Assembly (NCBI GenBank): GCA_019057375.1
Contig: DXJF01000035.1
Coordinates: 1-64,000, forward strand
Direction: 5' to 3'
Length of the DNA: 64,000 nucleotides
Source: Candidatus Heimdallarchaeota archaeon
GTDB taxonomy: Archaea; Asgardarchaeota; Heimdallarchaeia; Heimdallarchaeales; Heimdallarchaeaceae
Numbering within the stretch: the first letter of the stretch is position 1; the number at the start of each line of letters is the position of its first letter. Below the pieces are notes generated by a model that saw only the letters and a program-made list of their open reading frames with translations, was not told where the DNA came from and did no database searches. A program made the position numbers and the translations under genes. This document shows positions 33,288 to 48,177 of this stretch, piece after piece.

Positions 33288-33587
33288 ATGCGTTTTCAGA
33301 AGAAATCTAAAAGAAATTTTGCATTATTGACAATAATAACAAGTTTAGTGATTCTTGCTTCAGAAACAGCTTTGGCTCAAACTGCAGATTTAACACCACT
33401 CGGTGCAGCTCTAGCAGTTGGTATAGCCGGAGGTGCTGCCGCTATAGCAATGGGGATGGCAGGAAGTGCAGCCATAGGTGCTATTGTGGAAAAACCTGAA
33501 GTATTCGGAAAAGCTTTTCTCTTCATAGTGTTGATTGAAGCTGTGGCTATTTATGGTCTACTAGTAGCTATTCTACTTGTATTCTAA
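33288..33587 (+). CDS. atpK: A/V-type ATP synthase proteolipid subunit K/c with N-terminal leader
   Basis: GAALAVGIAG, EKPEVFGK, IEAVAIYGL (ion-binding Glu). Confidence 0.93.
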   Translation: MRFQKKSKRNFALLTIITSLVILASETALAQTADLTPLGAALAVGIAGGAAAIAMGMAGSAAIGAIVEKPEVFGKAFLFIVLIEAVAIYGLLVAILLVF

Positions 33588-42093: not shown

Positions 42094-45000
42094 ATGGCAA
42101 AGTTTAAACTAGTAAAAGTTCAGATACCAGTCAAAAATACAAATACACTATTGACAAAGATATCTTCTCTTAATATCTTTGAACAAATAATCGTTGACCC
42201 TCAAAGTCCTAAAGAGCAAGCAAGAATACAAACAACTAAAGACATTATGGAGGACAGATGGGAAAGAATAGTGGGGTTGAGCAAAGCTCTAAATATTCAA
42301 TTGGAAGACCTTTCATCATTAAAAGAAGAGGATTTAGTTGCTATTAATAATCATGATGAAGTAATTAAGGGTTTAGACGTTTTTCTGGAAAAATACGAAA
42401 ATCAGATAATAGAAAAATCCAGTGAATTACAAAAACTGAAAAAAGAGAATAGAATTCTCTCATCTTTGAAACAATTCCAAAGCAATTTGGATGACGAATT
42501 TTCAATCGATCTATTATCTTCAAGCTCAGAAACTTTCACTGTTTTAGGAGAAATTCCTAGTGGATATGAAGAAATTATACGCTTTTACTTAAATGAAGTT
42601 ACAGCAGGTCAAATTTTTTTCTGGAGTTCTTCTACAGACAATAATGAAAAGAAAGTAATGCTGTGTATTTCTTTAACTGATTATAAAGAACGTATAGGAG
42701 AGATTCTCAGGAAAAATTATTTCAATGAAACAGAATTTGAACTTGAACTTCTAAAATCCATAGAAAAAATAAGAGAGACAACAAGAATAGAAAAACTTCA
42801 TTCTGAAGTAAATCAAGATATAGAAAAAATTGAAGATGACATTAGACAGTTTTCTACTGAATTAGCAGAAAAAATTAGGTACTATCTAACTCTCATAAAA
42901 GCAACTCATAAAACTCTAACACTGGAAGAAAGAGGTCGTACTACATCAAAAAACTTTACTTTATGGGGTTGGATTACATCAAAAAATTACCTCATTTTTT
43001 TTGAAACTATTAATTCTTTACAAATAGATAGTAACATAGTGATACTGGAAGATGTTCCGCTATCGCGTAAAAAAGAAAGAGATGCTGAGCAAGAACTACT
43101 AGTTAAAAAGCAATTAGATACGGAAGAAAGTAAAATAGATAGCTATATTCCCCAGCTCCCACATACTGGTGAAGGTGGAGAAGGATTTCTTTTTGCAAAA
43201 AAAGCATTATTTGTGAGATTGGAGAGTCCAGAGGAATCATCCCGTCAATTCATTTCTCATTTGCACTCTCTTAACGCTGTTCATCCAGTGAAAATTGGAT
43301 CATTAGATGGAAGTACTCTAGAGAAGGCTAATAATTTGAGACAAGAACTGAGTCAGTATCTATCAAGAGTTAAGCGATTGTCAAATATGCTCAAATTAAA
43401 AGATACAAAAGAACAAAATACTGAGAAATATGATATTATTGATAATTATGACCACTCAAAAGCTTTCATAGAAAATTTCTTGCGTGAAAATGAGGAGAAG
43501 ATCACAAAAGCTTCTGATTCTTATGAGGAAATTCAGAAGAAACAAAGCCAGGTAAAATTATCTCTACCTTTTGAAGAAGGTCTCAAAGAAAAAGGTATTG
43601 ATGCAGTTTTACTTCAAAGTGGTTTCCAAACTGTAACTTACTTGGGAGTTGTTCCTAAATCCAACCTTAAATCTGTGAGATTCTTTTTGAGTGAAGTCAC
43701 CGATAATAATCTTGTATTCTGGGATTCAGAGCCTACAGATTCAAGTTCTAATGAGAAGAATATCTTAATTCTATCTTTAAAAGAGTATGAAAACGCAATT
43801 TTGCGTGTTTTAAATGAATATTCTTTCCAAGCAATAGACTACGATTTATCGCTGGTTGAAAGAAAGGTTTCATTGAAAGACACTTTAAAAGAAATTGAAA
43901 TAGAATTGAAGGAAAGTGAAGAAAAACTTCTAGAAATTAAGAATCAGGCTATAAATAAGTTAACTGCTTGTGAAGAGCTAATTAATGTTGAAAGCAATCG
44001 CTTAAACACCATTGAACTATGCCAAATATCTGAAGGAAAGATTGTTCTATGGGGGTGGACATCTAAAACAGTTTTAATGCAACTGAATAAAAGCAAGAAA
44101 GATTTATCATTCAAGATGAAAATTACTGAAAATCCTGAAGTTCCATTAGTCAATCCTGCTATAACAAAAAGAGGAAAAGTATTTGGAGCAGTAAGAGGAA
44201 TTGTAGGTGGTATTGGACATCCAAACACTAAACAAGTTGATCCTTATTCAATTGTTAGGTTTACATTTCCATTTTTATTTGGTATCATGTTTGCAGATAT
44301 TGGACATGGAATTTTATTGTCATTGGTTGCAGGATTCTTGATATATAAGAAAAAGAAGAATAAAATTGAGCCAGATGAATCGATGACAGGATATCTTTAT
44401 TCTGGTGCGGAATTACTTCTTTTCTGTGGTTTTTCAGCAACGATATTTGGGTTCTTCTTTGGATCATTACTAGGAGACGAACATTTCATACCAGAACTGA
44501 TGCACAAGGTAGGAATTAACTGGATACCAATAATCAATCCGCTACATGAAACAAAATTATTCTTAATTGTTGCTCTAATAATAGGATTTCTAATGATTCA
44601 ATTAGGAGTATTATTAAAAGTTTATCAAAACATGAGATATGGTCACGGGTTTGCATCTTGGGCCTCCCCTCTTTCATTATCTGTAGTTTATGTGGGTATA
44701 TTCGCCATGCTTTACAATATCATTGTAGGAGTGAACGGAATATATTGGCAAGCATTTCATTTTACACTTAATCAGTTACCATCAGCGTTTGTATATCTAG
44801 TCGGACTAGTCCCAGTATTGTTTATTTTAGAGTATATTCATGCTAAGTCTGATGGAATTATGGATGCAGTTGACCACATTATTGCACTCATATCAAACAC
44901 ACTTTCATTCAGCCGAATTATGGCACTCTTACTTGTTCATGCAATCTTAAGTGGATTACCATTTACTTTAACTGGAGTGGATTTAGTGGCAGGTGTATCA

Positions 45001-45297
45001 ACATTTTCAGGAGCATTCCTAGACGTAGCACATATTGATTTGTCACATTTTGCTGGAGGATTAATACATGGCCATTATGCTTCAGCTCTTAGTCTCTCTT
45101 GGATATGGTGGGTTGTAGGAATTTTATTTGCAGTATTCATAATATTACCATTAGAAGGATTATTATCGTTCCTTAACACACTAAGGCTTCACTGGGTTGA
45201 ATGGTTCTCTAAGTTCTATACTGGAGATGGTAAAGAATTCCTTCCCTTAAAAGAAAAACTTGTTTCAATCAATTTTGTCAGGCAAAAAGGTAGTTAA
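42094..45297 (+). CDS. atpI: A/V-type ATP synthase subunit I/a with duplicated cytoplasmic N-terminal domain (1067 aa)
   Basis: DP, FLFGIMFADIGHG, NTLSFSRIMAL (essential Arg), LRLHWVEWFSKFY.G.G; two homologous N-terminal units each ending LWGW. Confidence 0.93.
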   Translation: MAKFKLVKVQIPVKNTNTLLTKISSLNIFEQIIVDPQSPKEQARIQTTKDIMEDRWERIVGLSKALNIQLEDLSSLKEEDLVAINNHDEVIKGLDVFLEKYENQIIEKSSELQKLKKENRILSSLKQFQSNLDDEFSIDLLSSSSETFTVLGEIPSGYEEIIRFYLNEVTAGQIFFWSSSTDNNEKKVMLCISLTDYKERIGEILRKNYFNETEFELELLKSIEKIRETTRIEKLHSEVNQDIEKIEDDIRQFSTELAEKIRYYLTLIKATHKTLTLEERGRTTSKNFTLWGWITSKNYLIFFETINSLQIDSNIVILEDVPLSRKKERDAEQELLVKKQLDTEESKIDSYIPQLPHTGEGGEGFLFAKKALFVRLESPEESSRQFISHLHSLNAVHPVKIGSLDGSTLEKANNLRQELSQYLSRVKRLSNMLKLKDTKEQNTEKYDIIDNYDHSKAFIENFLRENEEKITKASDSYEEIQKKQSQVKLSLPFEEGLKEKGIDAVLLQSGFQTVTYLGVVPKSNLKSVRFFLSEVTDNNLVFWDSEPTDSSSNEKNILILSLKEYENAILRVLNEYSFQAIDYDLSLVERKVSLKDTLKEIEIELKESEEKLLEIKNQAINKLTACEELINVESNRLNTIELCQISEGKIVLWGWTSKTVLMQLNKSKKDLSFKMKITENPEVPLVNPAITKRGKVFGAVRGIVGGIGHPNTKQVDPYSIVRFTFPFLFGIMFADIGHGILLSLVAGFLIYKKKKNKIEPDESMTGYLYSGAELLLFCGFSATIFGFFFGSLLGDEHFIPELMHKVGINWIPIINPLHETKLFLIVALIIGFLMIQLGVLLKVYQNMRYGHGFASWASPLSLSVVYVGIFAMLYNIIVGVNGIYWQAFHFTLNQLPSAFVYLVGLVPVLFILEYIHAKSDGIMDAVDHIIALISNTLSFSRIMALLLVHAILSGLPFTLTGVDLVAGVSTFSGAFLDVAHIDLSHFAGGLIHGHYASALSLSWIWWVVGILFAVFIILPLEGLLSFLNTLRLHWVEWFSKFYTGDGKEFLPLKEKLVSINFVRQKGS

Positions 45298-45298
45298 A

Positions 45299-46291
45299 AT
45301 GTCACTTGGAGATATAAGCTATTTACTAGGTAGAGCCCATGGGGCTGTTAGTAACTTCTTAACCAAATCACAAATAAGTTTACTTTTATCTTCTAAGAAT
45401 CTTAAAGAATTAAGAGCTGCCTTTACTCAAACATCCTATGACAGCATTATTGGAGACCTCAACTTTGAAACACAGATATCTGATGTAGCTAAAAATCTTA
45501 AGAATTCTTATTCTGAATTATTGACTAAATTCTACAAACAGTCAGGATCATCAGTTAAGAAGAAAATCAAAAATTACAGTGAGAGATATCATGCTGAAAA
45601 TCTTCGCATAATATTTCAAGGCATAAATAGAGAAGTGAAGCAGGAAGAGATTTTATCCCGTTTAGTTCCAGTTGCTGATTATTCATTTGATTATTATTCG
45701 AAATTACTTAATAAGTCAATTGAAGAGATAATTGTTAATCAAAATAATCAGACTCTGCGAGATGTCCTCAAATTAGCAAATGAAGAATTTAAAACAACTG
45801 GAAGATTTACACCCCTAGAATCTGCAATAGATCAACACATCTATAGTATGCTACCTAAAGTATCAAAGCATTATGAAACATATGTTAATATGAAAAACAT
45901 CTTAGCTTTATGTCGCTGTATAGCTCTAAACGTACCTGCATATAGATTTATCCAACGCAATAAATTCACTGTAAAGGGATTGAAGGCAACAAGTATTCAA
46001 GAAGTTCTAGAAATATACAACTATGCTCCTTATCGAACAGTCTTTTCTAAATATATTGGTGTTAAAGAAGTGCCATTACATGATTTGGAATTTGCAGTTG
46101 AGAGATACTTATTAGATTACTGGAAAAAGACATTTCGTTTTGGAACAGTTCTGCAAATGGATGCATTAATTGGTTTCTTTGAACTGAAGCTCGCAGAGAC
46201 AATGGATATAATCAGAATTATTGTCGGAATTAGTGCAGGTTTTAGTGAAAAAGAGATTAGGGAAAATCTGCTTTACTATGGCAGTTTGTAG
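45299..46291 (+). CDS. atpC: A/V-type ATP synthase subunit C (homolog of eukaryotic Vo subunit d)
   Basis: Y..GRA, T.Y, NL..I..G, D..IGFFELK..E..DI..I..GI; ATG 2 nt after atpI stop. Confidence 0.85.
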   Translation: MSLGDISYLLGRAHGAVSNFLTKSQISLLLSSKNLKELRAAFTQTSYDSIIGDLNFETQISDVAKNLKNSYSELLTKFYKQSGSSVKKKIKNYSERYHAENLRIIFQGINREVKQEEILSRLVPVADYSFDYYSKLLNKSIEEIIVNQNNQTLRDVLKLANEEFKTTGRFTPLESAIDQHIYSMLPKVSKHYETYVNMKNILALCRCIALNVPAYRFIQRNKFTVKGLKATSIQEVLEIYNYAPYRTVFSKYIGVKEVPLHDLEFAVERYLLDYWKKTFRFGTVLQMDALIGFFELKLAETMDIIRIIVGISAGFSEKEIRENLLYYGSL

Positions 46292-46507: not shown

Positions 46508-47653
46508 GTGATATCTATGGAAGAGATGATTCAAAATAAACCGCTGGTTATAGATAACGGTACTGGTTTTACAAAGAACGGTTTTGCAGGCGAAGATCAA
46601 CCAAGAAGTGTTTTTCCAACAATTATTGGTTATCCAAAATATCAGATCATTATGACTGATGTTGAACACTATGTCCGCGAGTATTACATAGGTGAGGAAG
46701 CAATTAACCTCCGTGGTGTTTTGAAACTTGTTTATCCTGTCGAACATGGACAAGTTCAAGACTGGGATGCAATGGAGAGAATTTGGCATTATACATTCTA
46801 CAATGATTTAAGAGTCAATCCTAACGAACATCCTGTTCTATTAACTGAACCTCCATTAAACAAAAATCAAAACAAAGAGAAAATGGCAGAATTAATGTTT
46901 GATACATTCAATGTTCCTGCTATGTATATCTCAATGCAAGCTATTCTGTCACTTTATGCTTCTGGTCGTACAACTGGTATAGTTGTAGACTCTGGAGATG
47001 GAGTTACTCACATCGTCCCAGTCTACGAAGGTTTCGCTATAAGCCATGCCATTCATAGATCCGATATAGGAGGTCGAGATATTACAGATTACCTCAGAAG
47101 ACTTCTACGTCAAAGAGGGTATTCTCTATCCAGCAGTGCTGAAAGAGAAATTGTCCGTGATATTAAAGAGCGCCTTTGTTACGTAGCTTTAGATCCAGAA
47201 AAAGAACTAAAACTGGCAGAAAAAGTATCTGGAATGGAAAAAACTTACACACTACCAGATGGTGAAACTTTAACCATCGGTGCCGAGCGTTTCATGGCTC
47301 CCGAGTTGTGCTTTAATCCAGGTGCTATAGGTTCAGAAGAAAACCCATTAGATGAATTAATCTATAGATCCATCCAGAATTGTGATGTCGATCTCCGAAG
47401 AGATCTTTATGCAAATATTGTTCTATCCGGTGGTTCAACAATGTTCCCAGGTCTTAAGGAACGTTTGCACAAGGAATTAACTGAACTTGTCCCAGAGACA
47501 ATGGAAGTTAAAATCATTGCACCTCCTGAAAGAAGATATTCAGTCTGGATTGGTGGTAGTATTTTAAGTTCTCTAAAAACATTCGCTAAATTGTGGGTTA
47601 CCCGCAAAGAATATAGAGAAATTGGTCCTACCTCAGTTTATCGCTGTATCTAA
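46508..47653 (+). CDS. Actin (Lokiactin-type Asgard actin)
   Basis: [82 protein letters not shown]. Confidence 0.98.
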
Positions 47654-47820
47654 GATTTTTTTCTTTCTTTTTTCTTTTATTTTTTATTTATTTTACTGAT
47701 TTGTAATTCTTTGTAAACGATAATAGAAAAATCGTATTTTCTTAAAATTTGTATGAGTAACGTTTCCCTTTTATCAAAAGATTTATTTTATTTGCGTTGT
47801 TGCATAGTTTTAGTATATAA

Positions 47821-48177
47821 GTGAGAGTAAAACAAATGGCAGCCCCACAAATTACACCAGAGCAACAGGAAGATATTCAACGTTTTAATCAACTTGTTCA
47901 GCAATTGGAAGCTATTCGAATGAATTTACAACAACAAGAGTTGGAAAAACGCGATATAGATATCGCATTAAAAGAAACGAAAGATATGAACCCTTCTGCA
48001 GTAATTTATCGTTCTGCAGGAAGATTGTTGTTCCAATCAAATATTGAAGATGTTAAAAATCACCTTACAGAAGAACAAGAAAAAATCGAGGTTAGACTTT
48101 CCTCTTTAACAAATAGAGAAAAAAAATTAATGTCGTCTGTGAAAGAATTGCAAGAAAAGCTCATGGGAAAGAAATAA
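47821..48177 (+). CDS. pfdB: Prefoldin beta subunit
   Basis: Coiled-coil hairpin with VIYRSAGRLLF; possible start MAAPQ at 47836. Confidence 0.92.
   Translation: MRVKQMAAPQITPEQQEDIQRFNQLVQQLEAIRMNLQQQELEKRDIDIALKETKDMNPSAVIYRSAGRLLFQSNIEDVKNHLTEEQEKIEVRLSSLTNREKKLMSSVKELQEKLMGKK

Follow-up and report, generated by a model that had tools for sequence, protein, structure and literature searches.

The A/V-type ATPase of one family of Asgard archaea shows a subunit I (subunit a in eukaryotes) with a doubled stator arm, in which two modules of the type of the N-terminal domain of subunit a (aNT) stand in tandem ahead of a single membrane domain. Its gene was found at positions 42094-45297, on the forward strand, of a 64,000-nucleotide stretch (the window) of contig DXJF01000035.1 (C132), which belongs to an Asgard metagenome-assembled genome that is 89% complete (GCA_019057375.1, Candidatus Heimdallarchaeota archaeon). 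The gene is an open reading frame with a product of 1067 amino acids (aa). This doubled-arm stator is real, conserved and apparently undescribed, and the limited collection of full-text literature that was searched holds no description of a doubled aNT.

Comparison of residues 1-340 with residues 341-700 by BLASTP gave 302 aligned positions with 24% identity (E=1e-17), and the motif LWGW appears twice, at aa 290-293 and 652-655, with a spacing of 362 aa and with the W codons at nucleotides 42964 and 44050. An initial annotation, made from the sequence alone, had described two homologous units about 362 aa apart followed by a single intact membrane domain with the essential arginine; all the strings that it quoted are present and both parts of this description held. 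The protein is divided into four parts, all encoded on the forward strand. Unit 1 (aa 1-328; 42094-43077) is the added module, predicted to be a complete aNT fold with a proximal lobe, a helical arm and a distal lobe, and was delimited from the structural model, VIA-align comparison, substitution rates and a clade of its own. It is followed by a linker (aa 329-368; 43078-43197) that is predicted to be disordered, and by unit 2 (aa 369-690; 43198-44163), a canonical aNT module assigned from colinearity with single-unit orthologues, secondary structure and substitution rates. The membrane, or proton-path, domain (aa 691-1067; 44164-45297, stop codon included) was assigned from the C-terminal match to PF01496 and from sequence matches in the PDB. 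Arg941 (codon 44914-44916), at the position established as that of the essential stator arginine of the subunit I/a family, lies in the motif S-N-T-x-S-F-x-R-I-x-A and is invariant in all 37 aligned sequences (24 + 13).

Single-unit orthologues of other Asgard families are colinear with residues ~366-1055; therefore unit 2 and the membrane domain correspond to an ordinary subunit I, to which unit 1 has been added. The 1067-aa protein scores 138.2 bits against PF01496, with a curated cut-off of 30.7, and shows two aNT modules, at 1-328 and 369-690, in place of the canonical one per polypeptide; it is an architectural variant within the subunit I/a family and not an outsider. Pfam gives a single V_ATPase_I match, which begins only at residue 403, so that annotation based on length or on Pfam alone conceals the doubled arm. 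In addition, the end of the linker (aa ~353-370; window 43150-43200) shows a conserved His/Gly-rich stretch, H-I-P-H-x-x-H-x-G ... G-G-F, just ahead of the first strand of unit 2, with H357, G359, G364 and F367 as conserved columns; this stretch may bind a metal or serve as a docking peptide.

The AlphaFold2 model of residues 1-700, made with 32 family members, has a mean predicted local distance difference test score (pLDDT) of 77.5, and in it one order of secondary-structure elements recurs, first over 1-320 and then over 370-680. Each modelled copy starts with a beta-alpha-beta proximal lobe, runs through a long helical arm to an alpha/beta distal lobe, and ends with a return helix and the closure of the proximal lobe; the segment between the copies (329-368) has a pLDDT below 50. 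Unit 1 modelled alone reached a pLDDT of 85.4 and a predicted template modelling score (pTM) of 0.76. In VIA-align, its best fit was to the yeast Vph1 aNT (8eas_a; Z 19.1, root-mean-square deviation (rmsd) 3.9 Å over 306 residues), with many further entries at Z 15-18, and in Foldseek it matched the eukaryotic aNT with E 3e-11 and a template modelling score (TM), by query, of up to 0.67. Prokaryotic counterparts were also recovered: subunit I of Thermus thermophilus (6r0z_N) with Z 15.3 and Foldseek E 5.8e-11, and the N-terminal domain of subunit I of Meiothermus ruber (3rrk) with Z 10.5 and Foldseek E 1.1e-9. From the repeated order of elements and the fit to Vph1, both halves are predicted to be complete aNT folds, as had been proposed.

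Chains of eukaryotic subunit C (7u8o_G, 1u7l and others), a subunit with a head-neck-foot fold, were matched by unit 1 over their full length in Foldseek, with E 4e-7 to 6e-5, TM 0.21-0.32 and rmsd 13-15 Å, in which the known likeness of subunit C to aNT can be seen. The free-standing subunit C entry 1u7l was not among the best 50 VIA-align matches of unit 1, and PF03223 (V-ATPase_C) had no match in the 1067-aa protein at E<=0.01; a search of the genome with PF03223 was blank, as were its controls, and is uninformative. Unit 1 is an aNT by its modelled fold and not a C-like derivative. With by far the better matches on the aNT side, it is no nearer to subunit C than to an ordinary aNT, an outcome that the initial annotation had listed as counting against its reading.

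A word-indexed protein search found 33 relatives, nearly all of 1036-1076 aa and two shorter (902 and 936 aa), which cover 99-100% of the doubled region, with the exception of the last match (84%). Among 301 Asgard genomes searched, the two-unit form, scored as open frames of ~1045-1070 aa matching residues 1-700, was found in 26 of the 28 other genomes of the window's family, which is called Heimdallarchaeaceae in the source names of several matches. The carriers belong to four genera, include two single-contig genomes and extend down to 32% identity. The form was absent from the other 29 Asgard families sampled, where every match was a single unit in a frame of 680-830 aa. When a stand-alone unit-1 homologue (P0040, described below) was used as query, both units were found in 29 of 31 family genomes. 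One genome of the family (G086; genus g4, 89% complete) shows no match to the two-unit subunit I, E, the H/G-like protein or the 687-aa subunit I of the second ATPase described below; its ATPase is either very divergent or was left unassembled.

A maximum-likelihood tree (LG+C20) was generated with 14 unit-1, 13 unit-2 and 23 single-unit arms. Unit 1 forms a clade with 100/100 support and unit 2 a clade with 96/92, and together they form a clade with 99/99 support, outside which fall the sister-family arms from the same order. The sub-trees of the two units mirror one another.

Ratios of nonsynonymous to synonymous substitution rates (dN/dS) were calculated by the Nei-Gojobori method on seven orthologue pairs and ranged between 0.14-0.27 for unit 1, 0.09-0.37 for the linker, 0.08-0.20 for unit 2 and 0.07-0.19 for the membrane domain, which indicates purifying selection on all regions. 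Columns conserved in at least 90% of sequences number 19/80 and 22/100 in the lobes of unit 1, and 16/77 and 27/94 in those of unit 2; by this count both lobes of unit 1 appear nearly as conserved as their unit-2 counterparts. Unit 1 has 35 invariant columns. Furthermore, it shows an invariant motif of its own, V34-D35-P36-Q37-x-P39 plus Q42 and Q46, which is without counterpart in unit 2.

Two natural variants, each on a single contig of the same metagenome (ERZ2433807) and provisional, were also found. The first (P0041, L110:1519-3924) encodes 801 aa on a 6.4-kb contig with 14x coverage and has an AC39 gene after it. It aligns to a two-unit relative from residue 307 on and is without the first ~306 aa; what it retains begins with the last strand of unit 1 and continues through the linker and unit 2 to the membrane domain, and it places inside the unit-2 clade. 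Nothing unit-1-like was found upstream of it on its contig, and the variant appears to have lost the extra arm secondarily. The second (P0040, L016:659-1627) is a free-standing unit 1 of 322 aa, with 56% identity to the unit 1 of genus g3, that ends in a stop codon and has a convergent TPR gene downstream. Its contig measures 2.3 kb and has 2x coverage; the extra arm may have split off naturally here, or the copy may be a truncated allele. With unit 1 as query, an exhaustive HMMER search returned 13 proteins which, apart from this 322-aa copy, were the doubled family, ordinary subunit I or coiled-coil noise, and a shape search of the ESM Atlas for free-standing aNT-like or C-like proteins returned clusters of ordinary subunit I only.

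The genome encodes two A/V-type ATPases, one in a compact operon and the other in a scattered set to which the doubled subunit I belongs. Directly downstream of I is the gene for archaeal subunit C (AC39, the eukaryotic d; 45260-46291, forward strand; PF01992 E 5.7e-31), a synteny found in other loci too; a tblastn search with this copy found no other gene than the one beside doubled I. The gene for the c/K proteolipid, of 99 aa and one hairpin (33288-33587, forward strand; PF00137 E 1.4e-18), lies 8.5 kb upstream of I. The remaining genes of the set are on C47, which carries B and A, an H/G-like protein of 102-106 aa and F ~1.7 kb from A, and D 9 kb further, and on C65, which carries E. The doubled subunit I therefore has a complete series of partner genes (A, B, D, E, F, H/G-like protein, c and C/d), and in 30 of 31 family genomes the searches found one copy of E and one of the H/G-like protein. 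Sister families conserve the I-C pair and keep the order E-I-C-c, with c just after I-C; the scattering is therefore derived.

The compact operon (C150:47228-54673; L006:3229-10677) has the order A-B-D-Usp-E-I-c, with a universal stress protein (Usp) gene inside, a subunit I of 687 aa and a c subunit of 159 aa with two hairpins and Glu kept in both. It is without a C/d or F gene, and a weak G-like frame is found nearby. Its 687-aa subunit I has a patchy distribution: of the 24 genomes of the window's genus 19 gave a match, as did one other genus, whereas neither the two single-contig g3 genomes nor the other families of the class gave any; the operon may have been acquired. In those two g3 genomes these searches found no subunit I other than the doubled protein, so that the doubled stator belongs to the principal A-type rotary ATPase of the family.

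Some further features were observed around the scattered set. At its N-terminus the one-hairpin c subunit is extended by ~35 aa, which include a hydrophobic, signal-like segment, and it shows Ala and Val at positions +1 and +2 after the ion-binding Glu; by the published Na+ motif rule it is probably proton-specific. Immediately upstream of its gene, on the opposite strand, are two adjoining Snf7/ESCRT-III genes (PF03357; 31842-33126, reverse strand). Directly downstream of the I-C pair (46508-48177, forward strand) are genes for an actin-family protein (PF00022, E 1.7e-134) and for a subunit of prefoldin.

The two E-G stalks of a prokaryotic A/V-ATPase attach to a single aNT, one per lobe, and the A3B3 head has three equivalent attachment points, the third of which eukaryotes fill with the help of subunit C. 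In the arrangement proposed here, unit 2 would stand in the canonical collar position, holding two E-G (archaeal E-H) peripheral stalks, and unit 1 would be kept near by the flexible tether of ~40 residues, long enough to reach round the collar. Unit 1 would then be an additional collar piece that grips a stalk end with its aNT-type lobes, and would either add a third stalk on the free B subunit or brace the existing two, as a cis-linked, convergent analogue of eukaryotic subunit C. That unit 1 may be such a tethered extra collar anchor for the peripheral stalk or stalks, with unit 2 as the canonical arm, is the reading that we prefer, with about even confidence. Its narrower form, in which cis-duplication of aNT would give Heimdallarchaeaceae a rotary ATP synthase with three peripheral stalks, is possible and somewhat doubtful.

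Extra stalk-binding sites had been suggested in the initial annotation and are plausible, because both lobes of unit 1 are conserved within a predicted aNT fold; this part of the suggestion stands. Several points weigh against the anchor: binding of E-G by unit 1 is only inferred; how the two units lie relative to each other is uncertain in the 700-aa model (pTM 0.54); unit 1 evolves somewhat faster than unit 2, with a stem branch of 1.21 (0.40 for unit 2) and a slightly higher dN/dS; and P0041, which is without ~306 aa of unit 1, shows that the extra arm can be lost. A complex prediction of unit 1 (1-328) with the E and H/G-like subunits, as family alignments, gave a score of 0.02, with the mark at 0.32, and is no evidence either way.

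Unit 1 could instead be a regulatory or autoinhibitory decoy arm, which competes for stalk ends or docks on the rotor (C/d) to switch the enzyme off, as the eukaryotic aNT does in free Vo. We consider this unlikely, although it is the strongest of the competing explanations. The unit-1 model fits the aNT of Vo-only autoinhibited structures best (rmsd 3.9-4.8 Å, compared to 6.7-7.4 Å for holoenzyme states), but this predicted conformation is perhaps mere model bias. The flexible linker would permit large movements; however, no regulatory motif or partner was identified, and archaeal A-ATPases are not known to disassemble reversibly. The eukaryotic aNT is a known regulatory hub (PMC10313074).

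Somewhat less probable again is a scaffold that acts beyond the stalks of the enzyme itself, for example by pairing neighbouring ATPases or by recruiting proteins to a particular membrane. The invariant motif found in unit 1 only agrees with such a role, the longer stem branch of unit 1 suggests a changed function, and a family member in culture contains internal membrane compartments, according to a preprint (bioRxiv 10.1101/2025.11.06.686947). No partner was identified, however; the neighbourhood of actin, prefoldin and ESCRT genes is no evidence of interaction, and the fold and both lobes of unit 1 remain aNT-like.

That unit 1 is a tolerated duplicate with no function of its own is improbable. 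The loss in P0041 and a dN/dS slightly above that of unit 2 are what such a duplicate could show, but unit 1 is intact in four genera, even at 32% identity, with dN/dS well below 1, its 35 invariant columns and an internal tree that mirrors that of unit 2.

The tree also bears on the origin of the doubled arm. The duplication is lineage-specific, because units 1 and 2 form a clade that excludes the other Asgard arms, and the phylogeny indicates that it happened once, in the stem of one Heimdallarchaeial family, after the split from one-arm relatives. It is therefore not the source of eukaryotic subunit C, and the doubled arm is best read as an independent parallel to subunit C and not as its ancestor. 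The initial annotation had seen in the fusion a living model of the duplication that produced subunit C, which conflicts with units 1 and 2 being each other's closest kin and with the presence of the two-unit form in one family only. The related idea that the fusion is a relic of the ancestral form, and that subunit C came from the splitting of such a duplicated aNT, could draw on the fold common to aNT and subunit C and on the free-standing 322-aa unit 1, which shows on one metagenome contig that fission is possible. It is nevertheless very improbable, with both units in one clade inside Asgard (99/99), the two-unit form confined to one family in the search, unit 1 nearer aNT than C, and PF03223 undetected in the 1067-aa protein. 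Capture of unit 1 from the 687-aa subunit I of the second ATPase was also considered and rejected, since the 687-aa protein stands as an outgroup on a very long branch, while the closest group to unit 1 is unit 2.

The joint between the units is bridged, without indels, by Logan contigs from three other runs of two other studies: X5 (4185 nt) spans the whole gene with ~94% identity, X3 (1473 nt) covers 42807-44279, and X4 (1226 nt) also crosses the joint. With these contigs, with the same architecture in 29 of 31 family genomes, single-contig ones among them, and with copies that an assembler cannot collapse or expand because they are only 24% identical, an assembly chimera or artefactual repeat, for which nothing was found to speak, can practically be discarded, and the joint is real.

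The eukaryotic V-ATPase gained a third stalk and the collar subunits C and H, and the likeness between C and aNT suggests duplication of the arm. A close archaeal relative of eukaryotes has duplicated the arm independently and has kept it under selection for long, and therefore offers a natural test of the effect of a second aNT-like module on stalk number, stiffness and regulation. If the three-stalk form were true, it would be the first prokaryotic three-stalk A/V-ATPase, made without a separate subunit C, and a convergent experiment on how the eukaryotic collar could be built. Counting of the stalks by cryo-electron microscopy or cryo-electron tomography is feasible, because a member of the family is now in culture.

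Compared to known systems, the doubled protein belongs to the same Pfam family as prokaryotic subunit I (Thermus thermophilus 6r0z/6ly9/5gar chain N, Meiothermus ruber 3rrk and Enterococcus hirae 8wci), with which it has in common the membrane domain with its conserved Arg, the dumbbell aNT fold and the neighbouring C/d gene; it differs in having two aNT modules in tandem in 1067 aa, whereas the prokaryotic subunit has one in 650-700 aa. Eukaryotic subunit a (yeast Vph1/Stv1, mammalian a1-a4) is what unit 1 resembles most in structure (Z 17-19, rmsd 3.9-4.7 Å over ~310 residues) and gives the best PDB sequence matches of the Asgard membrane domain (E 6e-20); however, it has a single aNT, and the collar is completed by C and H as proteins of their own. 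Eukaryotic subunit C (Vma5 1u7l, mammalian C1) has an elongated aNT-like fold, as unit 1 is predicted to have, and the two are alike in concept, each being a second aNT-like collar element beside the true aNT. Subunit C, however, is a free soluble protein, whereas unit 1 is covalently tethered, is of independent origin, and shows no PF03223 signal and a low rigid-body similarity to subunit C (TM 0.21-0.32); in the window, as in 29 of 31 family genomes, it forms one protein with subunit I, and its sole free copy is the one on the 2x contig.

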